Below, piece after piece: positions 1-60,739 of a DNA stretch of 64,000 nucleotides. A model generated the notes under the pieces. The model worked only from the letters and a program-made list of their open reading frames with translations, searched no databases and was not told the origin of the DNA. The first letter of the stretch is position 1, and every line of letters begins with the position of its first letter. The stretch covers positions 1-64,000 of the IMG/VR virus record IMGVR_UViG_3300046507_000435; one strand, 5' to 3'. The position numbers and the translations under genes are program-made. Source of the stretch: a virus. Taxonomy: Duplodnaviria; Heunggongvirae; Uroviricota; Caudoviricetes.

Positions 1-54
1 GAGAGTGTTGGCGAGGCGGCGCAGCTGGTGGGCGAAGTAGGTTGCAACGGTCAT
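1..54 (-). CDS. 5' end of a leftward gene that continues beyond the window start
   Basis: Minus-strand ATG at 54 reads MTVATYFAHQLRRLANTL with no stop before position 1. There is too little sequence to assign a function. Confidence 0.2.
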   Translation of the reverse strand, partial: MTVATYFAHQLRRLANTL

Positions 55-161
55 GGCGGCTTTCTGAAGGTTAGGAAAACCGCAGTGTCAGGCCATTTAT
101 TCAAAAACTTGGAATTCAGGGGCGGGCGCCGCCCAGCTGGTGCGCGGCGCCCTGGTGCTCG

Positions 162-2187: not shown

Positions 2188-2433
2188 ATGGAGCAGACTT
2201 TGCGCCGCGCCGGTGGTTCGCTGGTGATGACGGTGCCGAAAGCGTTTATCGAGCAGAACAAATTGCACGATGGATCGCGGGTGCAGCTGGAGTTGGCCGG
2301 GTCGCAGTTGACGATTCGGGCAACGCGCCGGCCGCGTTATGTGCTGTCGGAATTGCTGGCCGAAATGCCGGCGGAATTGCCGCGTGTGGAAGGCTGGGAC
2401 AGCCTGCCGGCGGTGGGATTGGAGAGCGACTAA
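2188..2433 (+). CDS. mazE: MazE/PemI-type antitoxin (AbrB/SpoVT fold)
   Basis: 81 aa. GGSLVMTVPKAF..GSRVQLELAGSQLTI is the swapped-hairpin antitoxin pattern. It lies immediately upstream of the toxin gene and is translationally coupled to it by a TAAATG overlap. Confidence 0.75.
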   Translation: MEQTLRRAGGSLVMTVPKAFIEQNKLHDGSRVQLELAGSQLTIRATRRPRYVLSELLAEMPAELPRVEGWDSLPAVGLESD

Positions 2434-2784
2434 ATGGCGTATGTACCAAGACGGGGTGACATCATCCACTTGCAGTTCGATCCGGCCAGTGGCCGGGAAA
2501 TGAAGGGCGGCCACTTCGCCCTGGTGATCAGTGACAAGGCGTTTAATGCGCGCGGCTTGGCGATGGTGTGCCCGATTTCGCAGGGCGCCGCGGCGGATGC
2601 GCGGACGCACGGCACGGTGGTGTCGCTGATGGGCGCCGGCACCGACACGGTGGGCATGGTGCACTGTCACCAGTTGAAATCGGTGGACTGGCGGGCGCGC
2701 GGCGCGCAGTACAAGGAGTCGGTCGACGCCGCTATCTCGGACGAGGTGGCGGCCCGGATCGAAGCGATCCTGTTTGGAGACTGA
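2434..2784 (+). CDS. mazF: MazF/PemK/ChpB-family mRNA interferase toxin
   Basis: 116 aa. RGDIIHLQFDPASGREMKGGHFALVISD and CPISQ...THGTVVSL are the PemK/MazF signature blocks. Confidence 0.8.
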   Translation: MAYVPRRGDIIHLQFDPASGREMKGGHFALVISDKAFNARGLAMVCPISQGAAADARTHGTVVSLMGAGTDTVGMVHCHQLKSVDWRARGAQYKESVDAAISDEVAARIEAILFGD

Positions 2785-2788
2785 CGCC

Positions 2789-3034
2789 ATGGTCGATATG
2801 AAACTGCATGGCGGCATGGTGGACATGATCGTGAGCCTGACGCATCAGGATCTGCCGCCGAACCCGGTCACGGGCGCCGCGCTGGCCGGCATTTCGCAGG
2901 CCTTATTAACCTGGCTGATGGGGCCGACCTACCTGGCCGACTGCCATTTGTCCGGCCTGTCGGCCGACAGCACGCGCCGCACGATCGCCGATATCGCCGG
3001 CTGCGTGCAGCGTGGCGAAGCGGCCCGATTTTAA
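2789..3034 (+). CDS. hypothetical protein
   Basis: ATG 5 nt after the mazF stop. Moderate coding-like composition. No recognisable motif. Confidence 0.3.
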   Translation: MVDMKLHGGMVDMIVSLTHQDLPPNPVTGAALAGISQALLTWLMGPTYLADCHLSGLSADSTRRTIADIAGCVQRGEAARF

Positions 3035-3056
3035 CGCAATGACACAAGGAGTCACG

Positions 3057-3494
3057 ATGAACGACAACAAAGCGGTGCCGGGGAAGGGGGCGCCCCTGCG
3101 CCAGCAAGATCCGGAGGCGCAGGCGCGGATGGCGGTGGCGATGGCGGCGCGCGCCCGCGAGGCTGACGAGCGGCAAGCGCAGCTGCCGGCGATACGGCTG
3201 GAGGGAGAGGCGGCGCTGCGCCGGCTGCTGCCGATCGCGCAGCGCGACACGGGCCAGTCCGGCGTGATCGCCCGCTTCCTGCTGAACCTGTACAACGGCG
3301 AGCGCTTCCCGTTCGATCTGACCGACCTGCGCCGGCTGGACTACGCGTTGTTTGACGACTGCATGGCGGTCCTCAACATGGACTATCAGCCGGCGCAGGA
3401 GGTGCACCGATATTTCGACCACGGCGGCGCCACCTGGGAAGCCATGGCGAAGGCGTGGGGTTTTACGGACTATGCGGGCAAGGACTGGCGCTAA
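3057..3494 (+). CDS. hypothetical protein
   Basis: AAGGAG 7 nt upstream of ATG 3057. Normal amino-acid composition (W, Y, F, D/E). The antisense ORF 2868..3704 is R-rich and is treated as an artefact. Confidence 0.45.
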   Translation: MNDNKAVPGKGAPLRQQDPEAQARMAVAMAARAREADERQAQLPAIRLEGEAALRRLLPIAQRDTGQSGVIARFLLNLYNGERFPFDLTDLRRLDYALFDDCMAVLNMDYQPAQEVHRYFDHGGATWEAMAKAWGFTDYAGKDWR

Positions 3495-3804: not shown

Positions 3805-4112
3805 AGACTGCGCAAAACACGATGTTATGCTGGAACGCGGGCGGCCCGGTGGCGCTGGTGCCGTGGCCGGACGTGGACAACAAGGCCGGTGCCTATCAGA
3901 ACACGGCGCTGGCGTGCTGGATCGAGGTACGGGCGATGTCGGTGACGAAGCGGCGGGCGCTGGTCATGAGTGAGGCGTTGACGTTGATGGTGCGGGACAT
4001 GTGCCATCCGGCGCGGGTGCATGACGCGCTGCTGGAGTTGAGTGAATACCGGGAGTCGATACCGGAGGACATGCGGGCGCCGTACGATCATTTGCACCCG
4101 CGACGCGGATAA
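3801..4112 (+). CDS. hypothetical protein
   Basis: 103 aa, translationally coupled to the previous ORF. Followed by an inverted repeat. Confidence 0.4.
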   Translation: MKTAQNTMLCWNAGGPVALVPWPDVDNKAGAYQNTALACWIEVRAMSVTKRRALVMSEALTLMVRDMCHPARVHDALLELSEYRESIPEDMRAPYDHLHPRRG

Positions 4113-4133
4113 AGCGTGCCGGGCGCCAGCCCA

Positions 4134-4161
4134 AAGCGTGATTACTGCCCTAATCACGCTT
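4134..4161. terminator. inverted repeat between convergent genes; possible bidirectional terminator
   Basis: AAGCGTGATTA-ctgccc-TAATCACGCTT, a perfect 11-bp stem. It is followed by an AT-rich low-GC tract (4160-4300) and lies between the + gene ending at 4112 and the - rep gene ending at 4279. Confidence 0.4.
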
Positions 4162-4278
4162 TGAGCCAAAGATTATTCCAGAGGAATAATTTGCAAGTCG
4201 TTGATTATTAAGTGGGTTTCCGAAACCAAATAATAAATATTGTATTTTACATAATGTTGATTATGCGTAATTACTGAT

Positions 4279-5523
4279 TCATTTTGGCAACTGCTTCCCG
4301 GCCCAGGTGCGTAGCCAATTCTTGAACATAGCGCGCTCCAGGGAAACCTTGAATTCACCGGTTTCTTCATCGTAGGACTTGCAGTCATTGACGCCTTCCG
4401 TACCCACGTATTGACTGGCCAGCCGGTGCAGTTGTTCTGGCTCTAGGGCGTTGATAAGCTTGGTAATTGCGCGCGCGCGTGCGGCTTCTGACTGTTCCTT
4501 GTGAACACTGGCTTGGTTCTGCGCCAGTTCAGCTGCAGACTTAGCGGCAGCCTTCTTTGCTCGCGCCTCGGCGCGCGCCGGATCGTTGCCAATTGCGCCG
4601 CCACTTTCATAGACGGTCCGCAAATAGCCGGCCGGGTTCTCCAGTTGTCGTTCACGGTCTATGGCCTGAACGTGTTCCACAGCGCGCGCGGCGCGCTCCG
4701 GGTCTTGTATCACCCATACCAAGGCTAGCTTTTCGCCAATGCCGACTTCCAGCAAGCTCTTGAAGATAGGCGATTCGCGTACGGAATCCTCAACCGACTC
4801 GGCGCCGAATAGACTCTGCTGGACTGCCGCCTTGACCGAAAACCGAATGTCCTTGACCCTGCGCAGTTCGCGCCGATACTCCGGCTCGATTTCAATATCA
4901 GACACCTTGTTGACCTCTTCCACGGACTTCTTTATGACCTCGTTCGATAGATGCTTAAACGTGTCATAGCGAGGCGCGTCAGCACCCAGCAGCTGGCGCC
5001 AAGTATCGACGCCAATCCAGCCAGTCGAACCGACGTTCTTGAAGCGTACGCAGTTCTCCCATAAAGTCAGTGCGTAGCTACTGCTGAACTCGTTCTGAAT
5101 GCCCACGTTGATGGTGGCATAAATCTCCGGGTTTGCCAGTTCTTCGGCTAAGAATTGGGCGTACTGGTAAGAGCACACGCCGCCCTCGATGCGAGCGCCC
5201 GCCAATAACGCCATCGACTGCCAGGCCTTTTTCTTGCCGCTCTTGTTAAGAACGTCGAACGTTATGACGCAGCGCACGATATTCTCCAGGGCGGCTTTCA
5301 GGTTCTCGACGCCGCCATCCTGTCCCCAGCCTAATAAATCCAGCAGCACCGGAACGGGGATCGTGTGGACCGTCTTCGTCAGCAAGTCATCGTAGGCGTT
5401 GAGCAGCATGATGTTGACGATTTTCCTCTCCAACAGGGAGAGGTCGCCGCTCATATGGATGTGCGCCACGTTTTTCTTTAAAGGCCGCCGTGCCTTCGGT
5501 GCCACCATATTGGACTCGCCCAT
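4279..5523 (-). CDS. repA: plasmid replication initiator (Rep_3-like, iteron-binding)
   Basis: N-terminal LSLLERKIVNIMLLNAYDDLL matches the Rep_3 winged-helix signature. The gene lies immediately downstream of five 19-bp iterons and an AT-rich tract. Confidence 0.7.
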   Translation of the reverse strand: MGESNMVAPKARRPLKKNVAHIHMSGDLSLLERKIVNIMLLNAYDDLLTKTVHTIPVPVLLDLLGWGQDGGVENLKAALENIVRCVITFDVLNKSGKKKAWQSMALLAGARIEGGVCSYQYAQFLAEELANPEIYATINVGIQNEFSSSYALTLWENCVRFKNVGSTGWIGVDTWRQLLGADAPRYDTFKHLSNEVIKKSVEEVNKVSDIEIEPEYRRELRRVKDIRFSVKAAVQQSLFGAESVEDSVRESPIFKSLLEVGIGEKLALVWVIQDPERAARAVEHVQAIDRERQLENPAGYLRTVYESGGAIGNDPARAEARAKKAAAKSAAELAQNQASVHKEQSEAARARAITKLINALEPEQLHRLASQYVGTEGVNDCKSYDEETGEFKVSLERAMFKNWLRTWAGKQLPK

Positions 5524-5544
5524 GCGCTTCCCTCCCCTATCGCC

Positions 5545-5661
5545 GGTACAAAACCCGGACCTTACGGTACAAAACCCGGACCTTTCCCGTACAAAACCCG
5601 GACCTTATATTTCCGCTTACGGTACAAAAACCGGACCTTTCCGGTACAAAACCCGGACCTT
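5545..5661. repeat. iteron array of the plasmid-type origin (oriV)
   Basis: Five direct copies of GGTACAAAACCCGGACCTT at 5545, 5566, 5588, 5621 and 5643. The 5588 copy begins CGTACA and the 5621 copy has an internal AAAAACCGG variant. Spacing is 21-33 bp. An AT-rich region (5670-5770) follows. Confidence 0.8.
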
Positions 5662-5777
5662 TCGCGTTGCACTATATAAGGTGTAAACGCTTTTAAAGCT
5701 GTTGTATTTCTAAACAGAAACAACAACAAGATTCTCGTTGGTGTTTTTTTTAAAAAATCACAAAGCCCCCTCTTCCG

Positions 5778-6308
5778 CTACTTCTCCAGATCCTTGAGCA
5801 TTTTCGCCACGGTGCGCTCAATCGAATCAAGGCAAATCGCGTGTATCGACTTGCTGGTTGACCGTTCTAGCAAGTAGGAGAGCTTCATGTGCAATTCTTC
5901 CGGCAATCGCATACTGAAAATCACTTTAAGCCGAGGGTCTGCTTTTGCCCAAGGATACCCTTTTCCGGGCGCTGACGGCGTTTTTGCCTCACTGGTGGCA
6001 TCTGGGGTTGGTGAATGATCTGTTTCGCTCTCTACGGACTGCGAGAGCGCTTCATAGCCTGCTTTGCCGTTGCCGCCCATCTTGCCTCGATTGGAAATTG
6101 CCGCTATTGCAGGCATGGTCGCGGTGGCTTCTGCTGCTGCCGGCTCTGGCCCTAACTCGGCGGTTACGGCTTCGGTCACTTGGCCAGGGGTGTAGCCTGG
6201 GTCGGCCAGTTTAGAGGCGGCTAGCTCCCTCACCTGCTCTTCGGACAATGGTTTTGGCGGCACTGTTGGCGGCCGGAACGCTGGTCGTGCATTTTTGCTC
6301 ATGCCCAA
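5778..6308 (-). CDS. ParG-like ribbon-helix-helix centromere-binding protein
   Basis: C-terminal MRLPEELHMKLSYLLERSTSKSIHAICLDSIER has the RHH (Arc/MetJ/CopG) pattern. It lies directly downstream of parA with overlapping stop and start. The N-terminal part is Pro/Ala-rich and looks disordered. Confidence 0.55.
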   Translation of the reverse strand: MGMSKNARPAFRPPTVPPKPLSEEQVRELAASKLADPGYTPGQVTEAVTAELGPEPAAAEATATMPAIAAISNRGKMGGNGKAGYEALSQSVESETDHSPTPDATSEAKTPSAPGKGYPWAKADPRLKVIFSMRLPEELHMKLSYLLERSTSKSIHAICLDSIERTVAKMLKDLEK

Positions 6309-6967
6309 ATCTCCTTGTAAATTGCCTCGGCTTCGGCGATGGCCTTATTATCGAGCGCAGGCAGCTCATCGAGCGACATGCCAAATTCGGCCACATCGAA
6401 ATAGGCCACGCGCTGCGGAACCATTGGCTCCAGCAACTGGTATTCTGGGCAATATTCCAGGATGAATTCCCTTACCCGGTCCTCTCGCTTGGAATTCGGG
6501 TTGGTCGACACGGCGTTGAGGAAAGCGATCGCCTGCAGCTTTGCGTTGACAATGCGTGTGTCGGCAATGGTTTGGCTCATGGATGCCATAGTCGCTGTAT
6601 CGAACCTGGCCGGCCGGCACGGTGTCACCAGTTTGTCTGCGACAGTCATGGCTACGCGCAACTCAACCGAATTAGATCCGGCGCAGTCCACAATGATGTC
6701 GTCGTAGCGCGGCTTCAGGTCCAGCAGGCGCTTGGCGATGCTGTTTCCGGTCAAGGTGATGCAGTTCAGTGGCGGCTGCAGCGGTGCAAGCCCCTCCTCT
6801 TTGCCGTAGTTCTCGCGCTGCACCGCAAAATCATTTGCCGAGCCCTGCGGATCTACGTCCACAACCAGCACGTCACGGCCAGCTTTCATTCGCCACACGG
6901 CATTGTTTGCCGCATGCGTCGATTTGCCGGAGCCGCCCTTCTGCCCTCCAAAAATAACTATTGCCAT
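6299..6967 (-). CDS. parA: ParA/Soj-family partition ATPase (small type Ib)
   Basis: MAIVIFGGQKGGSGKST is the deviant Walker A. DVDPQGS is the ParA motif. AAGGGG lies 7 nt upstream of ATG 6967. The track ORF extends to 7033. Confidence 0.85.
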   Translation of the reverse strand: MAIVIFGGQKGGSGKSTHAANNAVWRMKAGRDVLVVDVDPQGSANDFAVQRENYGKEEGLAPLQPPLNCITLTGNSIAKRLLDLKPRYDDIIVDCAGSNSVELRVAMTVADKLVTPCRPARFDTATMASMSQTIADTRIVNAKLQAIAFLNAVSTNPNSKREDRVREFILEYCPEYQLLEPMVPQRVAYFDVAEFGMSLDELPALDNKAIAEAEAIYKEIWA

Positions 6968-7105
6968 ATTGATCCCCTTAAAAAGTGAGTAAACCGCAAT
7001 GTTTATTATGGACATCAATTTACCTAATGGCAAGTGAATTCGTGCGAATTGGTGCGATTCGATTCGGATTGATTCGAAGTGAGTTTAAGTGAATTGGTTC
7101 GGATC

Positions 7106-7278
7106 GATGTGACACGGAATGATGTGACACGGAATGATGTGACACGGATTGATGTGACACGGATTGATGTGACACGGAATGATGTGACACGGATTGATGT
7201 GACACGGATTGATGTGACACGGAATGATGTGACACGGATTGATGTGACACGGATTGATGTAGATCGATTCCGTGTGAC
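7106..7278. repeat. centromere-like tandem array (parC/parS) upstream of parA
   Basis: Ten tandem 15-bp units GATGTGACACGG(A/T)AT, ending in an inverted CCGTGTGAC copy. A second GTGGTG-rich repeat block follows at 7280-7380. Confidence 0.75.
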
Positions 7279-7381
7279 TTGGTGTGGTGTGGTGCTATGT
7301 GGTGCTATTCAACATAGCTTGGAATTGCTTCTATAGCTTCGTGTGGAGTGGTGTGGTGTGATATGGTGCTATAGGGGTGAT

Positions 7382-7585: not shown

Positions 7586-7803
7586 AGACTTCAGGGTGCA
7601 GGGAAGGGTGGTGCCACGGCAGCGGCGCCGGCGTAGGCAGCGGTGCGCCTTGTGATATGGCGATGATGTCTTTCACCAGCGCGATGAGTTCGCGCCGGTT
7701 GAAGTGGAAGATGGCGCCGCCGCTGCGCTTGTGATGGGCGTTCGCCCGGTTCAGGATCAGGCTGGGCGTGACCGGAACGGGTGGCGTGAACCGTTGTTTT
7801 TTC
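7566..7803 (-). CDS. hypothetical small protein (GTG start overlapping the upstream stop)
   Basis: A GTGA overlap with the stop of the 7802..8368 gene. The upstream part of the track ORF (7566..8162) is R-rich junk, so only the distal 78 codons are proposed. Confidence 0.25.
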
Positions 7804-8368
7804 ACGCCGCCAGTGCCAGAGCCGGTTTCGACATGATAGCCTGTAATGCCTCGGGCCACTGCGTCCCGATCGGGAAACTGCGGTAGGCGATCGGCTCGCT
7901 GGCGAGCGACACCTGCAGCCGTGGGGCTTCCTTGTCGGTGCCGGGCGTCCATACCAGTTTCAGCAACGCTTCCAGGCAAGCGGCGTTGCCGGCCTGCACC
8001 GCCATCGTGGTGCGCATCTGGTGCAGGACATGCAGCGGGTCGCATTCGGTGCCCGGCGGGAAACCCGCCGCCGCGCAGATATGGTCGTAGAGGGTCTGCA
8101 GCAGCTGCTCGGTGGTGGTCTTGCCGACTTCCTTGAAGACGTTGCGGGTCGCGTCCATGCACTGGTCCGCAGCCTCGGTATCGATGCCGTCATCGGACAG
8201 GCAGGCCTCCAGCATGATGCTGGCGGCACGGTCCATGATGGTTTGCTGACGTTTGATGTAGTCAGCCTGGTTGGCTATCTGCTGTTCCAGCGCGGCGATG
8301 TAGGCCGCCGCCTCTGGCGAATGGGGAATGGCTGCGTCAGGACGCGGCTGGGCAATCGGAGCTGTCAT
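7802..8368 (-). CDS. hypothetical protein
   Basis: 188 aa with protein-like composition (Y, D/E, Q). No recognisable motif. Confidence 0.5.
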   Translation of the reverse strand: MTAPIAQPRPDAAIPHSPEAAAYIAALEQQIANQADYIKRQQTIMDRAASIMLEACLSDDGIDTEAADQCMDATRNVFKEVGKTTTEQLLQTLYDHICAAAGFPPGTECDPLHVLHQMRTTMAVQAGNAACLEALLKLVWTPGTDKEAPRLQVSLASEPIAYRSFPIGTQWPEALQAIMSKPALALAA

Positions 8369-9325: not shown

Positions 9326-10387
9326 GTGGCTGTTTTCGTTGTTGATAAGGCTATATACTTCCGCGATAACCCGGAGAAACAACTTATGCTAGGGAGCTTG
9401 CCGCTCTACCGCCATCCCACCATCACTGTCCTGATCGAGGGATCACACGAAGCCGTCGATGCCCTGTGGGCTCGGCTGGACCCTGCGCTCATGGTCCATG
9501 TGGCGGCCGATCCCGCCGCCGCCCAGGCGAGCATCGAGATCAGCACGGAGGCGCTGCATCAGCTGGGCGACCCGATCGTGTTGCTGGACCCGGACATGGT
9601 CAGCGCCGCTGCCGCGCTGGACGATCGCCTGCACTCCATTTACCGCTACATCGCGGGGCCGCAGCGCTTCTGCGCGCCGGCCGTGGTGGTGGTCGAGTAT
9701 GATGCCGCCAGCCGCGGCATGGTGGCCTGCGAGGAAGTGTCGAGCGTGCCAGGCAAAAAGATCTGGTACACCGCCTCCAGCAACAGCCAGGAGGGCATCG
9801 ATGCCTTCAATCAGCGCTGGATCGATCGCTTTGTGCGCAATGACCAGGTGGAATCGGTGAGTCAGCTTGAGAAAGAGATAGTGGTTTTGCAGAATGAATA
9901 TTTCATGGACCGTTCGCGCCAGCTGGGCGAGGTCGAGGCCGACTCCGACGCCTACAGCTTCCTGTTCGACCCGGATTTTGTCGCATTGGTCGATGACCTG
10001 GCTGACCGCTACGGCTTTGTCGAGCATTACCTGTTCTGCGCGCCCAGCGGGTTGCTGTTCTTTGATGCCGACGCCAATCCCACCTTGATGGCGGTGCACA
10101 CCGAGGACAGCATGGTGCGCCAGTTCGAACTGGCGCGGGATCTGAGCGCCCCGGCCGACCTGCTGCAGGACATTTTCGAGTGCCGGGTGGTGCCGTTTTG
10201 TCTGGAGGCGATCGGCGCCGCGCCGCAGGCCGATGCGGGCGCGCTGGAGCGCGGCTGCCGGCCGGCGTCGGTTTGTCGCGGCCGGATGGACTATTACTGG
10301 GCCTTGTTCGATCTGCCGCCGGCGTTCCGCAAGGCGGAACCATTTTCCCATGCGCGCTTCATGCGCGACTACAGCGCGGTCGCCTAG
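9326..10387 (+). CDS. hypothetical protein with an N-terminal receiver-like (CheY-like) segment
   Basis: 353 aa, D/E/F/Y-rich and normal-looking. ITVLIEGSHEA and DPIVLLDPDM resemble receiver beta1/beta3 strands, a weak match. The antisense ORF 9443..10351 is R-rich. Convergent with the luxR-family gene. Confidence 0.5.
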   Translation: MAVFVVDKAIYFRDNPEKQLMLGSLPLYRHPTITVLIEGSHEAVDALWARLDPALMVHVAADPAAAQASIEISTEALHQLGDPIVLLDPDMVSAAAALDDRLHSIYRYIAGPQRFCAPAVVVVEYDAASRGMVACEEVSSVPGKKIWYTASSNSQEGIDAFNQRWIDRFVRNDQVESVSQLEKEIVVLQNEYFMDRSRQLGEVEADSDAYSFLFDPDFVALVDDLADRYGFVEHYLFCAPSGLLFFDADANPTLMAVHTEDSMVRQFELARDLSAPADLLQDIFECRVVPFCLEAIGAAPQADAGALERGCRPASVCRGRMDYYWALFDLPPAFRKAEPFSHARFMRDYSAVA

Positions 10388-11559
10388 CGCGTTTCCCGGC
10401 TGATCAGCCCCATGCGCAGCGCCACGTCGACCAGTTGCGGCGTGGTGTCGGCGCCCAGCTTCTTCTTCATGAACTTGATGCGCCGATCGATGGTGGGGAT
10501 GCTCATCGCCGTGATGGCGGCAATTTCCTTGCGCCCCTTGCCGCCCAGCATCAACCCGATAATTTCGATGTCATTCTCGGGCAGCGCGCGCTCATAGCGC
10601 GAGGTGGCGTAGCGCGCCGGGCTGGCCAGCATGCGCTGCATCAGCTGGTGCGCCAAGGCGGCGAGGCGGCGCAAATTTGGCTCGATGCCGGCCAGCTCAT
10701 GGTCACTGATGGCGGCGTCCGGGCGCGACAGCACCAGGGCCGCCGTGCCGTCGGTGGAGCGCATCAGCCAGCCCGACCCAATGCCATTCTCCATGGCCAG
10801 CGTCCAGAAGGCGGCGTTTTTGCCGCGTTGCTCACGCGCGCTCCATGCGGCCGGCCCCAGCCCGCCATGCAGGCGCGGGTCGATCATGATCAGGTGTTCG
10901 CGCTGATAGACCTCCTGCCACCGCCCCAGAAAATTGTCTTCCACCACCAGCGCGCCCGGATCGAGTGGGTCATGGGCCAGTGCCAGCGTGTGGTTAAAGC
11001 CAAAGCGCTCGCGCGCCAATTTGGCGATCTGCGAGAACTGTTTATTGTCGGGCAGCTGCGCCAGGCCCGGCAACACCCTGTCGGCCCATGCCTCGGTGCC
11101 GTCGCGGTGATCTGGATGGGTGGGGGGTAGGTCGGGGATGACCGCAATGTTGGTCACCGGCATCGGCTGCGACGCCGGCCTGGCCGGGCGCGCCGGTGCA
11201 GCTGTGATCGGGTGCCACTGGCGGCGGCGGCGGATCTTGTTCAATGCAAAACAGGTCAGGGCGTCTTGCGGCAGGGCAGTCTGCCCATCGGGCGCCAGCA
11301 GGACGATATTCGATTCAATGCCATCCGCGGTGACCACGAAATCATGGGCGCGCTCATCGTAGTACCAATGCCAGCGTAGCCAAACCGGCGCATGTTGCGG
11401 TCCCAGCCACTCGCAATGGCCCGCCATCTTGGCAGGCAGCATGCGCCGCAGCTGGAGCAACATGGCGTCATCCAGCTCGGTCGAAATTCGGCGCGGGAGC
11501 AGGGCGGCGAGGTCTTTGCGAGTGATGCGAACTGCGGTTTCGTGGGTGTTGCCGGTCAT
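10384..11559 (-). CDS. LuxR-family autoinducer-binding transcriptional regulator (possible internal start at 11163)
   Basis: C-terminal LPENDIEIIGLMLGGKGRKEIAAITAMSIPTIDRRIKFMKKKLGADT is a LuxR-type HTH (GerE). The preceding about 170 aa (QFSQIAKLARERFGFNHTLALAH...AAFWTLAMENGIGSGWLM) look like an autoinducer-binding domain. The ORF also carries a 130-aa N-terminal extension. Confidence 0.75.
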   Translation of the reverse strand: MTGNTHETAVRITRKDLAALLPRRISTELDDAMLLQLRRMLPAKMAGHCEWLGPQHAPVWLRWHWYYDERAHDFVVTADGIESNIVLLAPDGQTALPQDALTCFALNKIRRRRQWHPITAAPARPARPASQPMPVTNIAVIPDLPPTHPDHRDGTEAWADRVLPGLAQLPDNKQFSQIAKLARERFGFNHTLALAHDPLDPGALVVEDNFLGRWQEVYQREHLIMIDPRLHGGLGPAAWSAREQRGKNAAFWTLAMENGIGSGWLMRSTDGTAALVLSRPDAAISDHELAGIEPNLRRLAALAHQLMQRMLASPARYATSRYERALPENDIEIIGLMLGGKGRKEIAAITAMSIPTIDRRIKFMKKKLGADTTPQLVDVALRMGLISRETR

Positions 11560-13099: not shown

Positions 13100-13441
13100 A
13101 TGAGAACTATGGATAAGCAAATTCTACCAGAGCGGGCCAACCCGGCCGAGCAAATTGCATTACGCACAATTGCGGACAGTCGCGGTGGCTTGACCATCAA
13201 GGCCATCCAAGAACAGAACGGCGGCCGCTCAGGCATCTTGCAAGCGGTCCTGCGCAGCGCGCTCGACCAGCTCGTTGCAGAAGAGATTCTGGAATGCGAG
13301 AAGCCCAGCCGCGGCCCCGCCATCTACTTTCTGCCATATCAGAAACCGAGCCCCTGCCTTAAAAGCATACCGGCAGCTAAAGCGCGACCCATCCGTGTGC
13401 CGCAATGCAACTGGCTGGCTGCATTGGGAGTTCAGGCATGA
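13100..13441 (+). CDS. hypothetical phage protein
   Basis: 113 aa. Stop overlaps the MTase start (ATGA). Confidence 0.4.
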   Translation: MRTMDKQILPERANPAEQIALRTIADSRGGLTIKAIQEQNGGRSGILQAVLRSALDQLVAEEILECEKPSRGPAIYFLPYQKPSPCLKSIPAAKARPIRVPQCNWLAALGVQA

Positions 13442-15297
13442 AGCGCGATGCCTTTACCGAACCGCTCGATCTGGGCCACGAAGGCTTGGCGGACAACTTC
13501 GCCGGCGGCGGCGGCGCCAGCACCGCGATTGCCATGGCGTTCGGCCGTGAGCCCGATATCGCCATCAACCACGATGGCGAGGCCTTGTGCATGCACGCCG
13601 CTAACCATCCGACCACCCATCACATCCGTGAAGACGTGTTTCTGATCGATCCCGCCAAGGTCACTCGCAATAACCCGGTCGGCATGGTCTGGTTCTCGCC
13701 GACCTGTACGCACTTTTCCAAGGCCAAGGGCGACAACATCCTGAATCAGAAGATGCGCGGCCTGGCTTGGGTGGTCTTTAAATGGTGTGCGTATGTAGTC
13801 CCCCGGACGATGTTCTTGGAAAACGTCGAGGAATTCATTACCTGGGGGCCACTGGATAGCAAAGGCAAGCCGATCAAGGAATTTAGCGGCCGCACCTTCC
13901 GAGCCTTCATCGATGTACTGACCACCGGCATTGCGCCGGATCACCCCGACCTGCAGGAAATTATGGAAACGCTGGGGGACGCCTTCCCTTGCTCACTGCT
14001 GTTGCGCGGGTTTGGCTACACCGTCGAATGGCGTAACCTTTTCGCCCATCACTTCGGCGCCGGCACCCGCCGCAAACGCCTGTACATGGTAATGCGCCGC
14101 GACGGCCTGCCGATCTGCTGGCCTGAACGTACCCACGGCCCGGCCGACTCGCAGGAAGTACGCAGCGGGAAATGGCTGCCCGAGGATATCACCGGCAACA
14201 ACATCGACTGGTCGATTCCATGCAAGTCCATCCTGTTCGGCCGTAAGAAGGATCTGGTTCCGCCGACGCTGCGCCGCATCGGTCGCGGCTTTGAGCTGTT
14301 CGTCAAGGACACCGACAATCCTTACATCGTCAACGACAAGATCGCCGCTGCAGTGGTTCAGACCGGATACGGCGAAGCTCCCGGACAGAAGCCGCGCGTC
14401 ATGGACATCCGCCAGCCGCTGACCACCGTAGTCGCCGGCGGCGGCAAGCACGCAGTGATGGCCGCGCATATCACAAAATTCAAGACGGGCAGCACCGGCC
14501 ACCGCCTTGACGAGCCACTGGCCACCATCACCTCCGGCGGCGGCGCCAAGCGTCCGGCCGGCGCCGCGCATGGCCTGGGGCTGGTCGCCGCCTCGCTGAT
14601 CCAGTATTACTCCGGCGGCGGCCAGAACAGCGGCGTCGATCAGCCGCTGCCCACTATCGTTACCAAGGGCCGCATGGGCCTGACGTGCACGACATTGCAG
14701 GCCGCGCACCTGGTTGGCATCGACAACCAGAGCAACAAGAGCGGGAGCTGGTCCGCCGCCGATCCGTTGACCACCATCACCACCGAAAACCGTCACGCGG
14801 TCGTGGTGAGCAATCTGGTCAAGCTGCGCGGCACCAGCCACGCGGCAGCGGCGAACGAGCCTTTAGGGACCATCAGCGCCGGCGGGTTGCATCACGGCGA
14901 GGTGCGCACCACCCTGGCTGAAGCCGAGCACGAGGCAGATGCCGAGTACCTGACGCGCCGCCAGAAGATCCGTGAATTCCTGTGGGAATACTGCCCGAGC
15001 CTGGAGGGCGTCGATCGTCCGGAGCTGGTCATGATTCGCGGTGTGCTGATGGAAGTCACCGACATCGGCCTGCGCATGCTGACACCGCGCGAGCTGGCCA
15101 ACTGCCAAGGTTTCCCACGCGACTACATTCTTGACCCGTACCACACCTACACCAACAAGCGCGGAAAAACGGTCACGAAACGGCTCCCGCAGCACGCCCA
15201 GGTACGCATGATCGGTAACAGCGTTTCGCCGCCGCCGGCCGTCGCCCTGATGCGCGCCAATATCCAGCATGAAGTCATGATGGCGAGGGCTGCATGA
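13438..15297 (+). CDS. DNA (cytosine-5) methyltransferase with a repeat-containing target-recognition region
   Basis: Motif I FAGGGG, motif IV SPTCTHFSKAKG (Pro-Cys), motif VI ENVEEF, C-terminal QGFPRDY and IGNSVSPP. The central region has five ~30-aa repeats of the form (Q/E/D)PL.TI..GG. Confidence 0.9.
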   Translation: MKRDAFTEPLDLGHEGLADNFAGGGGASTAIAMAFGREPDIAINHDGEALCMHAANHPTTHHIREDVFLIDPAKVTRNNPVGMVWFSPTCTHFSKAKGDNILNQKMRGLAWVVFKWCAYVVPRTMFLENVEEFITWGPLDSKGKPIKEFSGRTFRAFIDVLTTGIAPDHPDLQEIMETLGDAFPCSLLLRGFGYTVEWRNLFAHHFGAGTRRKRLYMVMRRDGLPICWPERTHGPADSQEVRSGKWLPEDITGNNIDWSIPCKSILFGRKKDLVPPTLRRIGRGFELFVKDTDNPYIVNDKIAAAVVQTGYGEAPGQKPRVMDIRQPLTTVVAGGGKHAVMAAHITKFKTGSTGHRLDEPLATITSGGGAKRPAGAAHGLGLVAASLIQYYSGGGQNSGVDQPLPTIVTKGRMGLTCTTLQAAHLVGIDNQSNKSGSWSAADPLTTITTENRHAVVVSNLVKLRGTSHAAAANEPLGTISAGGLHHGEVRTTLAEAEHEADAEYLTRRQKIREFLWEYCPSLEGVDRPELVMIRGVLMEVTDIGLRMLTPRELANCQGFPRDYILDPYHTYTNKRGKTVTKRLPQHAQVRMIGNSVSPPPAVALMRANIQHEVMMARAA

Positions 15298-15476: not shown

Positions 15477-15901
15477 CCCGATCACCGATGAAGCCCAGCT
15501 CCAAACCCATGACGCGCAGCCCGATGTTGCGCGGCACGTCCCAGCTGACTCGCACGCCCATGGCACGCGGCACCAGCCGCATGAAGACGCGGCGCCGCAA
15601 GCTCACCCCGATCCAGCAGTCTGCCCGGGAAGAGGATTGCACGCTGCGCTTCTGGTTCTGCCGCAATCAGCGCGACACCGTGGTCTGGTGCCACTCCAAC
15701 CGGCTGGCGGACGGCAAGGGCATGGGCCTGAAGGCAAACGATCAAGCCGGCTGCTATGGCTGCAGCCTGTGTCACGCCTATCTGGATGGCGGCTGGGCAT
15801 CCGACCCGGCCATGACGTACGAGCTGGTGCAGGAACGATTTGAACAAGCGCGCCTTGAGAGCAGCGCAAAACTACAGCACAAAGGATTAGTTGCACAATG
15901 A
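15467..15901 (+). CDS. DUF1364 / YbcO-like phage protein (putative nuclease)
   Basis: DCTLRFWFCRNQRDTVVWCHSN...GCYGCSLCHAYLDGG parallels YbcO (ECQVRIPGVCNGNPETSVLAHIR...ACSACHDEID). The N-terminus has SPM/RGTS repeats. Confidence 0.5.
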   Translation: MGLTRSPMKPSSKPMTRSPMLRGTSQLTRTPMARGTSRMKTRRRKLTPIQQSAREEDCTLRFWFCRNQRDTVVWCHSNRLADGKGMGLKANDQAGCYGCSLCHAYLDGGWASDPAMTYELVQERFEQARLESSAKLQHKGLVAQ

Positions 15902-16659
15902 GTATTCACTTGATGACCCTGGCATGGCGATCCGGCGCGAAGACCGGCCAGAAAATGGTGTTGCTGGCCCTGGCTGACAACGCCAACGACCAGTACGAAT
16001 GTTATCCCTCGATCCGCATGATTGCGCGCAAGTGCAGCATGTCGGAGCGGGCGGTTCAAGGCCACATTGCCGACATGGAGACAGCTGGCATAGTCCGGCG
16101 TGAATTCCGCCCTGGCCACAGCACCATGTACCACATCGAGCCCCGCAATTTCTGCACCCCCGCAGAATCTGCACCCCGTCGTAATCTGCACCCCTCCCCC
16201 GCAGAATCTGCACCACCACCCCCGCAGACTATGCACCCCGGGGGTGCAACTGCTGCACCCATAACCACCAGTAAACCATCAATTGAATCGTCAGTGAAAC
16301 AAAAGAAGGGCGGGCAAGCCGCCGCCGACAAGTTCGACCCGCTCGCCGCGTTGATCGCCGAAGGCGTGGATGCGCAGGCCGCTGCCGACTGGTTGGTCAT
16401 CCGCAAGGCCAAGCGCGCACCACTGACCGTGACGGCGCTGGCACAGACCAAGGAACAGGCCGAGCTGGCCAACATGACGCTGCAGCAGACGGTGCAGCTG
16501 TGCTGCAAGCGCGGCTGGCAAGGCTTTGAGGCCGAGTGGGTCGCGCCCCGCGCCGGCGGTCCGCTGGGTGCCCGTGGCGGCAGGACCAGCACCTTCGACC
16601 AAAGCATGGACGGCGCGGCCGCCGCCAAGCAGCGCCTGTTCGGGGGCGGCAATGGTTGA
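15898..16659 (+). CDS. lambda O-like replication initiator (N-terminal DnaD/O-type HTH)
   Basis: MVLLALADNANDQYECYPSIRMIARKCSMSERAVQGHIADMETAGIVRR resembles the lambda O N-terminal domain (LLAILRKTYGWNKP..ITKLPVKRCNEAKLELV). Iteron-like repeats lie inside a Pro-rich linker. Confidence 0.55.
   Translation: MSIHLMTLAWRSGAKTGQKMVLLALADNANDQYECYPSIRMIARKCSMSERAVQGHIADMETAGIVRREFRPGHSTMYHIEPRNFCTPAESAPRRNLHPSPAESAPPPPQTMHPGGATAAPITTSKPSIESSVKQKKGGQAAADKFDPLAALIAEGVDAQAAADWLVIRKAKRAPLTVTALAQTKEQAELANMTLQQTVQLCCKRGWQGFEAEWVAPRAGGPLGARGGRTSTFDQSMDGAAAAKQRLFGGGNG
16146..16260. repeat. iteron-like repeats inside the O-like gene (candidate phage lytic origin, ori-lambda style)
   Basis: TCTGCACC recurs at 16151, 16169, 16186 and 16208, with variants at 16229 and 16253. 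Spacing is 17-22 bp. The repeats encode the Pro-rich linker of the protein. Confidence 0.45.
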
Positions 16660-17329
16660 GGCCGATTACGACGCCTTCACGAACATGCTCAGCGCGATCG
16701 GCGACATGAAGCGACAGCCACAGTCCCAGTGGGCCTTCGGCGTCTGGTGGAAGGCGCTGGAGCACTACGACTTCCGTGCGGTCGATGATGCCCTGATCCG
16801 CCACGTGCAGAACCCGGACAACGGGCAGTACATGCCGACGCCGGCCGACATCATCAAGCTGATCGATGGCAGCAGCGTGGACGCGGCGATGGTGGCCTGG
16901 GCCAAGGTCGACCGCGCCGTGCGCACCATCGGTACCGGCCCGGACGTTGCCTTCGATGACATCATCATCCACCGCGTCCTGCACGACATGGGTGGCTGGA
17001 CCAAGATGGGAGACAAGGACGAGAAGGAGTGGCCCTTCGTGGCCAAGGAATTTACTACCCGCTACCGTGGCTGCCGCACCCGCGCCGAGCTGGGCGAGTG
17101 CCCGCCGATCCTCTCCGGCTTCTACAACATGCACAACGCCTCGATCGGTGGCTTCGCCCTGCAGCCCGTCCAGCTGATAGGCGACGCCAGCAAGGCGGCG
17201 GCCGTGGCGCGCGGCACCATCCGACTGATCGGCAGCGATCGCGGCGCGGCGCCTGCGCTGGAAAACCACGCCAACAACCGCAACACCCCTTCACTCAAAT
17301 TGCAGTATTTCAAGGAGCAAGCAGCATGA
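16651..17329 (+). CDS. putative replication protein (lambda P-like helicase loader)
   Basis: WAFGVWWKALEHYDFRAVDDALIRHVQNPDNGQYMPTPAD loosely parallels lambda P (RRQWVLAFRENGITTMEQVNAGMRVARRQNRPFLPSP). It immediately follows the O-like gene and its start overlaps that gene's stop. Confidence 0.35.
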
Positions 17330-18826: not shown

Positions 18827-19285
18827 ATGAAAAAACGTGATCCGATCGCCGAGTATGTGCAAGACTGGGTGCGCTGGTGCCAGACACGCACCTTTTACGC
18901 ACCCGCCCCGACCAAGAGCCTGCTGGCGCGCATGCAGCCGGCCAAGACCGGCAGCGAGCCCAACGCCCGCAACCACCCCGACATGCAGTATTTCAACATG
19001 GCGGTGCACACCCTGGCCGACATGAAGCAGTGGCGCCGCGAGTGGCCGACGTTCAGGGCGCACTTCCTGGGGCCGGCGCAAGTGGTCAAGGTCACCGCCG
19101 CCCAGCTGGGCATCGGCACGCGCACCTACTACGACCACATCACGCGCTTTTCGCGCGCGGCCTACGTCATGGCCGAGCACATCAAAAAGGCCCATGAGGC
19201 CATGCACCCGGCGCCCAATCAACCGCCAGCGGCCGCGCCGGCGCCGGCACCAGTCGCACGGGGCGCGCATGGTCGCCTCCGTTAA
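18827..19285 (+). CDS. hypothetical protein; possible Q-type late-gene antiterminator
   Basis: Position at the end of the early/replication block. The Trp-rich N-terminus (DWVRWCQ) weakly recalls QuuD-type Q proteins. No firm motif. Confidence 0.3.
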   Translation: MKKRDPIAEYVQDWVRWCQTRTFYAPAPTKSLLARMQPAKTGSEPNARNHPDMQYFNMAVHTLADMKQWRREWPTFRAHFLGPAQVVKVTAAQLGIGTRTYYDHITRFSRAAYVMAEHIKKAHEAMHPAPNQPPAAAPAPAPVARGAHGRLR

Positions 19286-20342
19286 GCTGATCCGCGGGAT
19301 CTGGCACTACCGCTTTCAGATCGACGGCAAGCGCATCCAGCGCAGCACCCGCCTGCGCGGCCGCAACCGGGGCAAGGCCATGGCGATCGCCCAGCGCGCC
19401 TATGACGATGCCATCACCCTGCGCAACCAGGGCAAGCGCATGCCGACGCTGGCCGAGCTGGCGGCCGAGTGGCTGCGCGTGCGCGGCCCGGTGGTGAGCC
19501 GCGCCCACGCGACCAGCGTGGAGGCCTTCGCGCGCCTGCACCTGTTCGACCTGGGCGCGCTGCGCATCGAGGACATCACCACGCGCCGCGTCGAGCTGGC
19601 CCGCAACGACTACCTCAAAACGCACAAGCCGGCATCGGCCAATCACTGGCTGCGCAATCTGAAACTGGTGGTGAACTGGGCGGTGGCCGATGGCGTGCTG
19701 CCCAAGCTGCCATGGAAGGTGCCGATGATCCCGGTGCAGAAGCGCCCGCGCACGCTGCTGCCGCTGGCCGACACCGTCAAATGGTTCGCCGTCATCGATG
19801 AATTTACACGGCGCCCGGTGGCGCAGGGCGTGGCCACGGCGATCCGCATGATGTACGGGCTGGGCCTGCGCGAAATGGAGGCGGCCGGCGCGCGCTGGGA
19901 GTGGGTCGACTGGGAGCGCGGTACCTACACGCCGGGCAAGACCAAGGGCTACGAGGCCGAGCCGATCGACATGCCGGACTGGCTGGTGGCGCACCTGCTG
20001 CCGCTGCGCCGTGAGTCGGGCCTGATCGCGCCGCGCCGCAATGGCCGCCAGCGGCCCAGCGGCTTCACCGCGACCGCCATGCGCCACGCCAACACCGCCT
20101 GCCAGATCCACGGCCTGACGCCACACCGGCTGCGCGGGACGTTCGCCACGCTGCTGTCCGAGAACGGGGTACCGATACAGGAAGTGCAGGCGGCGCTGCG
20201 CCACAAAGATCCGATGACGACCATGAAGTACCTGGAGAGGAAGCGCGGCACCCTGAAAAAGGGCCAGCAGGGCATCGCCGAGCTGAACGGAATGATGCGG
20301 CAACAAAACGGCGGCGAGCCGGCTGCGGGGGCGCAGCCATGA
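19269..20342 (+). CDS. int: tyrosine recombinase / phage integrase
   Basis: Catalytic R (GLGLREME), HRLRGTFAT (H-x-x-R) and the MKYLE tyrosine. An internal Met at 19269 (MVASVKLIRGIWHYRF) is the likely start; the track ORF starts at 19194. Confidence 0.85.
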   Translation: MVASVKLIRGIWHYRFQIDGKRIQRSTRLRGRNRGKAMAIAQRAYDDAITLRNQGKRMPTLAELAAEWLRVRGPVVSRAHATSVEAFARLHLFDLGALRIEDITTRRVELARNDYLKTHKPASANHWLRNLKLVVNWAVADGVLPKLPWKVPMIPVQKRPRTLLPLADTVKWFAVIDEFTRRPVAQGVATAIRMMYGLGLREMEAAGARWEWVDWERGTYTPGKTKGYEAEPIDMPDWLVAHLLPLRRESGLIAPRRNGRQRPSGFTATAMRHANTACQIHGLTPHRLRGTFATLLSENGVPIQEVQAALRHKDPMTTMKYLERKRGTLKKGQQGIAELNGMMRQQNGGEPAAGAQP

Positions 20343-20419: not shown

Positions 20420-20720
20420 AGGGTCGAAAACTGCAACCAAAAACAGGGCACCTGCAACCATTTTTCAGAGGCCAAAAACATGGGCGAAAACATTGTTAAT
20501 TTCAGCCTGGCCAAGCTGCTGGGCACGCCGTTGCGCCTGCGGATAATTCCGCGCGCAATCAATGACTTGCTGAAATCCGCACACCCCGAAAAGTGGTATT
20601 GCTGGCGGTCGGCGCCGCCCGGTAGTTTTGCCTGTGTCCCGCACCTCAATTTTGGGCAAATTCCGTGGTTGCAGTTTGCATGGTTACAGGTTTGGTTGCA
20701 GAACGCCCCTGACCTGCAAC
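20420..20720. repeat. cluster of 9-bp direct and inverted motifs downstream of int (candidate attP arm sites or regulatory sites)
   Basis: CTGCAACCA at 20430, 20451 and 20706. Its inverse TGGTTGCAG at 20668 and 20692. The 460-bp stretch has lower GC. The track ORF 20339..20794 has odd composition and is probably not coding. Confidence 0.4.
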
Positions 20721-20881
20721 CATTGCCGATTGAGCAAAACCGCCTCTACCTCAATAAAGCACAGCTCCGGTGGCTTACGAAACCTGTTTTCTAAGTTTCC
20801 CGCCGAACCGCCTTATCCTCGCGGCCAGCTGCAAACCAAATCACTCTCGCGCATCACAGCGCACTTGCTAAAGGAATACTG

Positions 20882-26134: not shown

Positions 26135-26336
26135 AGCGCAAAGTATACAGAGCCACCCCTGAAATCAGACCGAAACACTGCACGGGCGCGGCCGCAACAG
26201 GTATGCGAGATTTTCCGCGCAATTTAGTCCTCGCAAAACCCGCACAAAAGCCCGTAAAATTCGCCTCAATTCGATAGGTTGAAAAACTGACTCTTGCGAA
26301 AAGCGCCGTAAAGAAGGCCTTTCAAGAGCATCGAAT

Positions 26337-26414
26337 GCTGCCATAGCTCAGTCGGTAGAGCGGCCGAGGAAAACGTACTTGGTGGCGTCGCTGGTTCGAG
26401 TCCAGCTGGCAGCA
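26337..26414 (+). tRNA. tRNA-like sequence with an aberrant anticodon arm (possible pseudo-tRNA)
   Basis: Good acceptor stem (GCTGCCA/TGGCAGC), D arm (GCTCAGTCGGTAGAGC) and T arm (GCTGGTTCGAGTCCAGC). The 27-nt region between them cannot be folded into a normal anticodon stem-loop. Confidence 0.3.
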
Positions 26415-26564
26415 ACATCGCGGATCAGGTTTGGTGGTGCCGTGTAAAGGCCGGCGCCATATAGCCCTGACGTAGGCGCCAAGCCTGATCCGCCCCCCAG
26501 AAAAAGTAAGGTGCGCGCCCGGTAGCCGGCAGATAGCCGGCGCTGCGGCCCGCACCGAACCCAA

Positions 26565-26640
26565 TGTCATGTAGCTCAGTTGGTAGAGCGTCGGATTGTT
26601 AATCCGGTGGTCGCTGGTTCGATCCCAGCCGTGACAGCCA
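26565..26640 (+). tRNA. tRNA-Asn (GTT)
   Basis: 76 nt. Acceptor TGTCATG/CGTGACA, D arm GCTCAGTTGGTAGAGC, anticodon arm TCGGA-TTGTTAA-TCCGG, T arm GCTGGTTCGATCCCAGC, encoded CCA. Confidence 0.9.
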
Positions 26641-26648
26641 GAACACAT

Positions 26649-26722
26649 GCGGGTGTAGCTCAATGGTAGAGCGGAAGCCTTCCAAGCTTACGACGAGGGT
26701 TCGATTCCCTTCACCCGCTCCA
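26649..26722 (+). tRNA. tRNA-Gly (TCC)
   Basis: 74 nt. Acceptor GCGGGTG/CACCCGC, anticodon loop CTTCCAA, T loop TTCGATT, encoded CCA. Closely parallels enterobacterial tRNA-Gly(UCC). Confidence 0.9.
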
Positions 26723-60683: not shown

Positions 60684-60739
60684 CGCCGGCGGCACTGGCC
60701 GCCCAAGCTGAGCCGGCCGCCCCGGCCGTACAGCGCACC

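Follow-up and report, generated by a model that had tools for sequence, protein, structure and literature searches.

A Rep_3 iteron replicon and a ParF-like partition operon on a circular, podovirus-like temperate phage that is probably a low-copy plasmid in its lysogens

We investigated a replication and partition locus carried by a phage, in the stretch of DNA formed by positions 1–64,000 of the IMG/VR record IMGVR_UViG_3300046507_000435 (Caudoviricetes); these 64 kb are called the window throughout. The work is computational only. The locus is a compact block (4113–7381), transcribed leftwards, with a GC content of 53.1% versus 64.2% for the rest of the window; its edges are a hairpin with an AT-rich tract on the left (4129–4278) and positions 7261–7381 on the right. 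A first-pass annotation had read this cassette as a Rep_3-like initiator with five 19-bp iterons and an AT-rich unwinding tract, next to a type Ib ParA/ribbon-helix-helix (RHH) operon with a centromere array of ten 15-bp units, and each of these elements was recovered, at or close to the position given and well above chance (protein lengths are in amino acids, aa):

4129–4278, no strand: hairpin (arms 4129–4144 and 4151–4166) and second AT-rich tract (4168–4278), downstream of rep
4279–5523, minus strand: rep, Rep_3-family iteron-binding initiator of 414 aa, with winged-helix domains WH1 and WH2 and a 180-aa C-terminal extension
5545–5661, plus strand: five direct 19-bp iterons GGTACAAAACCCGGACCTT in a 3+2 arrangement, proposed origin and rep operator
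5662–5777, no strand: AT-rich tract adjoining the iterons, candidate unwinding element (64% AT, 75% at its peak; window average 36% AT)
5778–6302, minus strand: gene for a 174-aa RHH protein, candidate centromere-binding partner; its start codon shares bases with the stop codon of parA (ATGA)
6299–6967, minus strand: parA, small deviant-Walker-A ATPase of type Ib, ParF-like, 222 aa
7033–7005, minus strand: par promoter-like site TTGCCA-17-CATAAT (sigma-70-like), within the interval 7005–7099 between parA and the array
7100–7260, plus strand: centromere candidate, tandem 15-bp unit CGGAWTGATGTGACA with a TGTnACA core, 10.7 copies by Tandem Repeats Finder (TRF)
7261–7381, no strand: right edge of the low-GC cassette, with one inverted array unit (7267–7278)

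The product of rep carries both domains of its family above the Pfam gathering scores (Rep3_N, E 2.1e-11, 44.8 bits for a cut-off of 22.4; Rep3_C, E 3.6e-10, 40.4 bits for a cut-off of 21.1) and matches phrog_2172/4402. When a profile of 40 members of the Rep family was compared with the Protein Data Bank (PDB), the matches were iteron initiators only, RepE of mini-F and π of R6K. The single Rep sequence, searched against PDB sequences, gave one match, a designed protein, which we judged spurious. Rep is 40–45% identical to the Rep proteins of ordinary Burkholderia, Paraburkholderia and Ralstonia plasmids, and no match was found among 50,697 phage records. The iterons start at 5545, 5566, 5588, 5621 and 5643, all in a single orientation and with 0–1 mismatch, five matches to GGTACAAAACCCGGACCTT being observed where 0.02 were expected. 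Spaced by 21, 22, 33 and 22 bp (a phasing of about 22 bp), they sit between the rep start codon, which the last iteron precedes by 22 bp, and the AT-rich tract 5662–5777, a candidate unwinding element. This tract also contains a TATAGT −10-like element immediately upstream of the iterons and a terminator-like hairpin for the par operon (5724–5740, minus strand). Because the likely rep promoter lies on one side of the iterons and the start codon on the other, Rep would be expected to repress its own gene. The second candidate tract, on the other side of rep (4168–4278), is 73% AT with a peak of 80%; it holds the most AT-rich 60-mer of the 64 kb and an integration host factor (IHF) consensus site (4194–4206) that is one of only three in the window. 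The whole region 4129–4278 may serve as a terminator, for DNA unwinding or for both purposes. Two winged-helix domains, phased direct iterons and an adjacent AT-rich tract, all marks of a Rep_3 iteron-type replicon, are thus present, and a DnaA box was not found. The initiators RepE of mini-F, π of R6K and RepA of pPS10 share with this locus the WH1 and WH2 domains and the 19-bp direct sites, phased at about 22 bp, that lie by an AT-rich tract and overlap the rep leader; the present Rep differs from them in its length (414 aa, with the 180-aa extension), in the missing DnaA box and in a similarity that is distant (E ~0.007).

The true start of ParA lies at 6967 (MAIVIFGGQKGGSGKST), giving a protein of 222 aa with a deviant Walker A motif (KGGSGKST, residues 10–17) and without an N-terminal helix-turn-helix (HTH) or DNA-binding domain. 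It matches CbiA/AAA_31/MipZ in Pfam and, over its full length, the NCBIfam model ParA_partition (E 4e-33; 114.7 bits, under the equivalog cut-off of 180), and its best solved relative in the PDB is ParF of TP228 (E 9e-9 over residues 1–147). Since ParA lacks an N-terminal DNA-binding domain and has ParF as its best solved relative, we assign it to type Ib. The ATGA overlap with the RHH gene was read directly in the sequence and makes the two genes translationally coupled. The 174-aa product of this second gene starts with a disordered part rich in Pro, Ala and Glu and ends in an RHH domain (approximately residues 125–175). Taken alone, it gave no Pfam, PHROG or NCBIfam match above threshold and no word-index homologues. 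An exhaustive HMMER search revealed 78 small proteins that have the C-terminal 65 residues in common with it; in the PDB, the profile of these proteins matched Mnt, two CopG proteins and nothing else, and individual members match the Arc, HicB and RHH families. Supplied with the alignment, AlphaFold2 modelled this domain as an extended segment followed by two helices, with a predicted local distance difference test (pLDDT) score of 91–96; the single-sequence AlphaFold2 model was poor, the ribbon being mis-called as helix, and the domain was too small for a Foldseek comparison with the PDB to be informative. We assign the 174-aa protein to the RHH fold with moderate confidence.

Upstream of parA, the 13-nt core GATGTGACACGGA occurs ten times without mismatch, at 15-bp spacing (7106–7253; 1.4 matches expected at ≤2 mismatches), a count that is approximate because the assembly is built from short reads and a contig from another assembly (the Logan contig described below) breaks inside the array. 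Degenerate 10-bp repeats occupy the interval 7005–7099 between the array and parA, and four to five 10-bp repeats of the GTGGTGCTAT type lie beyond the array, at 7261–7381. As far as it can be read from the sequence, the operon has the make-up of a type Ib system: a small ParA devoid of an N-terminal domain, an RHH partner encoded just downstream and a putative repeat-type centromere upstream of parA. The ParF/ParG/parH system of TP228 resembles it in its ATPase, in an RHH partner with a flexible N terminus and in repeats upstream of the operon. The likeness ends there: the partner is 174 aa long versus 76 aa for ParG, with no detectable sequence similarity between the two, the centromere is a regular array of ten 15-bp units, unlike that of TP228, and ParA stays below the NCBIfam equivalog cut-off.

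The locus had been described as embedded in a phage, and a full set of phage modules indeed surrounds the cassette. Immunity is represented by a CI-like repressor and a CII-like activator, and the early genes encode a C5 methylase, a YbcO nuclease, an O-like initiator, a DUF6475 protein and a tyrosine integrase. The packaging and virion genes encode TerS, TerL, an SU10-type portal, an N4-gp56-type major capsid protein, an adaptor, tail fibres and an internal virion protein, and lysis is represented by a GH19 endolysin. The isolated phages closest in capsid protein, Pseudomonas phage Rollin and similar ones, show at most 43% identity, and none of them is P1, N15 or SSU5; because neither the capsid protein nor Rep revealed homology to these three, we rejected an assignment of the element to any of their groups. 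After the tail genes comes the gene of a giant polyvalent protein of 5,833 aa, which occupies 54920–64000 (plus strand) and about 8.4 kb beyond the window. Its InPase domain covers residues 742–875, and helicase and ART-PolyVal domains are on record for it; it is homologous to a 5,555-aa PLxRFG protein of the Massilia plasmid described below and is probably a multi-enzyme protein delivered with the virion.

The topology of the assembly, which the first-pass annotation had singled out for checking, was resolved with a second contig. An exact look-up of Rep retrieved a 53,129-bp Logan contig of run SRR26077930, the other end of which was found by a look-up of the major capsid protein. The contig matches the window at 100% identity over 7,149 bp at the Rep end and over 15,026 bp at the capsid end. 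It runs from window position 7149, inside the 15-bp array, leftwards past position 1, through 12,820 bp outside the window, and back in at 64000 down to 30841 (window position 1 is position 7149 of the contig and window position 64000 is its position 19970), where it stops inside a 72-bp tandem repeat. This repeat lies between the terminase and portal genes (30725–30912; 2.6 copies, 83% match). The 12,820 bp joining the two ends of the window complete a circle of 76,820 bp in which each junction is crossed by one contiguous assembly, so there is no attL or attR. As a check on the closure, the 5,833-aa open reading frame (ORF) on record, which ends 4.4 kb to the left of the window, has a computed start at 54920, and window position 54920 is an in-frame ATG heading a frame of 3,027 codons that runs off the window. 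The part of the gap that is covered, 5.7 kb, encodes the C terminus of the giant protein, an H-NS-like protein and small ORFs; it contains no chromosomal genes. A contig of the Joint Genome Institute (JGI) with the same Rep measures 76,960 bp, that is, one circle plus about 140 bp, and judging by the lengths this excess would look like the terminal overlap of a circular contig. Exact look-ups of the window proteins encoded at 53200–54900 and 13405–15297 found neither on record, and a 55-nt exact pattern from window positions 40–94 had no match in metagenome_contigs or viral_contigs. An integrated prophage was rejected, no flanks being present anywhere on the circle. The proposal that the element is a phage-plasmid is upheld on this point: attL/attR sites with chromosomal genes on both sides, the arrangement that would contradict it, were not found, and the circle closes without flanks.

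The backbone has close relatives in sequenced bacteria. Compared with a plasmid collection, the capsid protein is 78.6% identical to that of the plasmid unnamed of Massilia violaceinigra B2 (NZ_CP024609.1), a finished circle of 87,120 bp. Synteny with this plasmid holds gene by gene across the whole backbone, from packaging to tail and through the endolysin, a 5,555-aa PLxRFG protein, H-NS, a LuxR-DUF4902 regulator, CI, CII, the O-like initiator and the integrase, with identities of 79% for TerL and the major capsid protein and 70% for the portal. Between H-NS and the homologue of the window gene 7802–8368, nothing is shared: the Massilia plasmid there encodes a PDDEXK nuclease, RHS toxins, insertion sequence (IS) elements, KfrA, a second integrase, a ParB (ParB_N and HTH) and a 352-aa ParA. 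Its ParAB operon, of type Ia, abuts the homologue of 7802–8368. Since a partition operon abuts the same conserved gene in both elements, the position of the partition locus is conserved and its type has been swapped. The Massilia plasmid thus resembles the element in backbone order, in the repeats internal to the O gene and in the place of its partition operon, and differs from it by its ParA/ParB, KfrA, second integrase, IS elements and RHS toxins and by having neither Rep_3 nor an RHH partner; a 274-aa gene between its integrase and parB gave no convincing Rep signal, and no plasmid-type Rep could be recognised on it. The searchable literature contains no description of it as a phage-plasmid, and this "plasmid unnamed" appears to be a phage-plasmid never flagged as such. 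At least 12 further backbone relatives were found in IMG/VR (69–85% identity in TerL or the C terminus of the giant protein), on contigs of 33–80 kb, ten of them longer than 57 kb, with the gene order kept; one 5.9-kb fragment was excluded. Four of these relatives carry a type Ia ParAB within 10 kb of the giant gene, and none shows the cassette of the window. Further isolates that carry the backbone are Janthinobacterium sp. S3T4, where it makes up a whole contig of 70,830 bp, and Massilia frigida (CCM 8695). Its presence in Janthinobacterium and Massilia isolates shows the host to be an oxalobacteracean.

The cassette itself looks like an exchanged module, because its GC content is 53% versus 64% elsewhere and because the block recurs in other elements. 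Searches with its DNA returned one match of 196 bp at 68% identity in plasmids and nothing in phages. The nearest Rep homologues (57–59% identity) are encoded on phage-like contigs. In one of them, L004 (run SRR22387779), which is another member of the lineage of this element, parA, the RHH gene and rep are 39%, 47% (over the domain) and 59% identical to those of the window, about 11 copies of an iteron motif differing from GGTACAAAACCCGGACCTT are present, repeats whose GATGTSA core is related to that of the window's 15-bp array lie upstream of parA, and the 3′ end of a giant gene, 70% identical to that of the window, lies about 0.7 kb past rep. As this locus comes from a different run, it is independent evidence for the physical linkage of parA–RHH–rep to the giant phage gene. 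A second homologous contig, L003, has iterons of a related motif, GGTACAAAAGTACGACCTT. A scan of IMG/VR with the single Rep protein found nothing, and the Rep relatives there were found with an alignment-based scan: on nine of ten contigs (Rep identity 36–46%), parA, one or two RHH genes and rep follow each other in the same order, the five long contigs measuring 88–98 kb. One of these contigs is plasmid pBVIE05 of Burkholderia vietnamiensis G4 (CP000621.1), a circle of 88,096 bp that also encodes a phage repressor, ERF, an exonuclease and a GH19 lysis cassette. It has 8–9 iterons upstream of its RepB, the position that iterons occupy in L003 and L004 as well, and the Rep of the block is the only annotated one among the 73 of its 111 features that were covered (record positions 1–50,000). 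pBVIE05 is therefore a circular plasmid full of phage genes that bears the window's type of block and, like the other ~90-kb IMG/VR relatives, shares with the window the order and orientation parA, RHH protein(s), iterons, rep. These elements differ from the window in an identity of only 35–36% (ParA, Rep) and in often having two RHH genes, and the phage backbone of pBVIE05 is unrelated to that of the window, the GH19 endolysin being the sole shared part. We infer that the whole cassette arrived as one block at a variable hot spot, which separates the giant gene from the immunity region and where relatives have type Ia ParAB and KfrA instead.

Outside the cassette, the following features of the window bear on how the element may be replicated and maintained:

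2188–2784, plus strand: MazE-like antitoxin (2188–2433) and PemK/MazF toxin (2434–2784), assigned with Pfam; candidate post-segregational killing module
15898–16659, plus strand: O-like initiator, HTH_36 (phrog_678, E 1.6e-30), part of the conserved backbone, in the rightward early operon
16652–17329, plus strand: DUF6475 protein after the O-like gene, with a faint helicase-loader match (E 0.0015)
19194–20342, plus strand: tyrosine recombinase, 51% identical to the integrase found in the corresponding position of the Massilia plasmid
20431–20722, three direct and two inverted: five 9-bp motifs CTGCAACCA just 3′ of the integrase, in an AT-richer stretch (0.64 expected)

The O-like gene contains four CCGCAGAATCTGCACC repeats inside its coding sequence (16143–16237), and its homologue on the Massilia plasmid (29969–30916 of L006, which is NZ_CP024609.1 45001–87120) contains five copies of the motif at the same place. 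This is the arrangement of lambda, with origin repeats within the O gene, the loader match of the next gene being faint only, and it suggests a second, phage-type replicon in the backbone, that is, a P1-like logic of one plasmid and one phage replicon. The CTGCAACCA region, which is the 9-bp repeat region of the first-pass annotation, may be attP or a multimer-resolution site, and the integrase may resolve multimers or permit occasional integration. No such repetition of the motif is seen next to the Massilia integrase, where a single block of about 20 nt (GTCGAAA..TGCAACC) aligns; no att or resolution site can be defined from it. The MazEF pair belongs to an accessory region beside the cassette, where it is flanked by a SprT-like gene (1300–2139) and a DUF7673 gene (3012–3494); several relatives have these two genes in their variable region too.

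The element had been likened to P1, N15 and SSU5; the resemblance stands for the logic of P1 and fails for descent, neither Rep nor the capsid protein showing homology to any of the three. Phage P1 has a plasmid-maintenance region, oriR-repA-incA-parA-parB-parS, and a separate lytic replicon, oriL/repL. The element likewise combines an iteron-controlled initiator beside a Walker-type partition operon and candidate centromere with a putative second, phage-type replicon elsewhere, and an addiction module and a tyrosine recombinase on what would be a circular prophage. It differs from P1 in having no sequence relationship to it, no second iteron cluster equal to incA, a type Ib system (small ParA and RHH protein, centromere upstream) in place of type Ia ParA/ParB, and a podovirus-like make-up with an N4/SU10-type capsid, P1 being a myovirus.

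What the sequences show is the anatomy of the locus, the families of its proteins, the closed circle, the synteny and the recurrence of the cassette. From these we infer, as follows, each biochemical step, the plasmid state, its copy number and how the two replicons would share the work. Rep_3 monomers would bind the five iterons, melt the adjoining AT-rich tract and recruit the host replisome, and copy number would be limited by Rep autorepression together with handcuffing of the iterons. The RHH protein would coat the 15-bp array upstream of parA and autoregulate the par operon; its flexible N-terminal part would stimulate the ParF-like ATPase, and the plasmid copies would be segregated over the nucleoid. 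MazEF would kill the cells that lose the element. Lytic replication would start from the putative lambda-type O-like replicon, in the rightward early operon after CI and CII.

Of what defines a phage-plasmid (Pfeifer et al. 2021), the element has the full set of temperate-phage functions, genes for plasmid replication and partition, and a separate circular replicon without chromosomal flanks; upkeep as a plasmid in lysogens and production of infectious virions are predicted for it. We conclude, with a probability of roughly 0.8, that the window represents 64 kb of a 76.8-kb circular, podovirus-like temperate phage which probably persists as a low-copy plasmid in its lysogens. Several observations weigh against this conclusion. 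No DnaA box was found in 4100–4290 or 5520–5790, either as TTATCCACA at ≤1 mismatch or as TTWTNCACA; DnaA boxes are common and not universal in Rep_3 iteron origins. The Logan and JGI assemblies probably derive from the same reads and would not be independent evidence for closure, and virion DNA in a metagenome would also yield a circular map if it were circularly permuted by headful packaging. L003 has its Rep_3 gene, 57% identical, beside immunity genes with no ParA within 10 kb, so that this clade of Rep can also serve as an ordinary phage replication gene. The plasmid relatives without Rep_3 imply that the O-like replicon, or a gene that was not recognised, can support the plasmid state, in which case Rep_3 may be redundant; lambda-dv, for instance, is sustained as a plasmid by an O-type replicon. 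The division of labour between two replicons is accordingly the weakest link of the model. With its conserved integrase, finally, the element may integrate.

Some of these observations would also fit an ordinary temperate or lytic phage, integrating through its tyrosine integrase or non-lysogenic. In that case the circle would only reflect how permuted virion DNA, or replicative DNA, assembles, Rep_3 and the iterons would serve the theta replication of the phage, and ParA and the RHH protein would do something else, for example in regulation or in positioning during infection. The origin of the DNA from a metagenome or a run of unknown sample is compatible with this, as are the integrase with its clustered 9-bp motifs and the L003 early region, where a close Rep_3 homologue occurs without ParA. 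There are precedents too: the phages of the BigBertha group carry partition genes and are maybe not plasmids, and P88, with plasmid-type genes, was found integrated (Pfeifer et al. 2021, PMC7969092). However, a putative lambda-type O/ori replicon is already present in the early operon of the element, whereas Rep_3 lies outside this operon, points leftwards and is joined to a partition operon. The three-gene block moves as a unit and is found on a finished circular plasmid (pBVIE05), the closest relative of the backbone is itself a finished circular plasmid with IS elements and RHS cargo, and a MazEF addiction pair lies nearby. We regard an ordinary phage as unlikely.

The element could also be taken for a plasmid with a captured, now defective prophage, or for a decaying phage-plasmid, that replicates and partitions as a plasmid and no longer forms virions: the IS6, IS66 and RHS toxin genes of the Massilia relative suggest a long residence as a plasmid, and the element has many ORFs without an assigned function. 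This is very unlikely, given that the morphogenesis, lysis and packaging genes are all full-length and syntenic at 45–79% identity, that no IS elements or frameshifts were seen in the window and that the gene order is kept in the related IMG/VR contigs. A chimeric assembly of a small plasmid and a phage might be suspected from the distinct GC content of the cassette and from the breaks of both assemblies at repeat arrays (window positions 7149 and 30841), but the Logan contig is unbroken from parA and rep via the accessory genes and the giant gene to the capsid genes, the window is unbroken from parA to the terminase, and run SRR22387779 independently joins parA–RHH–rep to a homologous giant gene. 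A chimera is hardly credible in the face of these three continuities. The evidence supports the reading of the element as a phage-plasmid from Massilia/Janthinobacterium-like soil bacteria, a result that is real and unsurprising.

The window holds other genes of interest. A 391-aa regulator (10384–11559, minus strand) combines a DUF4902 (RsaM-like) domain, an autoinducer-binding domain and a LuxR/GerE HTH. Its gene lies just beyond that of CI, on the same strand, and the Massilia plasmid conserves it (38%) in the corresponding position. The protein may be a phage quorum-sensing receptor that feeds the lysis–lysogeny switch; we found no paper in the searchable literature that pairs DUF4902 with phages. 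The C5 cytosine methyltransferase of the early operon (13405–15297, plus strand) is 630 aa long, three tRNA genes (Phe, Asn, Gly) are located at 26336–26722, and a SET-domain protein is encoded among the late genes (51516–52433, plus strand).

Phage-plasmids that join conserved phage genes to variable plasmid genes are well documented (PMC7969092). As the class is already established and its variable modules are a published rule (PMC7969092), the finding extends the class and overturns nothing. No paper in the searchable literature links phage-plasmids to Massilia, Janthinobacterium or pBVIE05. We tentatively suggest, with somewhat less than even confidence, that the element belongs to a family of Oxalobacteraceae phage-plasmids that has so far gone undescribed and of which it would be the first member to be recognised. 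Such a family would be characterised by an N4/SU10-type capsid, a polyvalent virion protein of about 5,500–5,800 aa, a conserved lambda-type lytic replicon and the exchange of whole plasmid-maintenance cassettes at one hot spot, among them the Rep_3 and ParF/RHH block shared with the unrelated pBVIE05 type, and its switch is maybe wired to the quorum sensing of the host via the LuxR–RsaM (DUF4902) fusion encoded next to CI. Since isolates with relatives exist (M. violaceinigra B2, Janthinobacterium sp. S3T4 and M. frigida CCM 8695), the model is testable at the bench. The element documents a phage-plasmid lineage in soil and freshwater bacteria of the Massilia/Janthinobacterium type, and its cassette is a three-gene rep–par block that moves between unrelated phage-plasmid families. 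One backbone equipped either with ParAB of type Ia and KfrA or with Rep_3 and ParF/RHH offers a natural comparison, which could reveal the functions that are needed for life as a plasmid.

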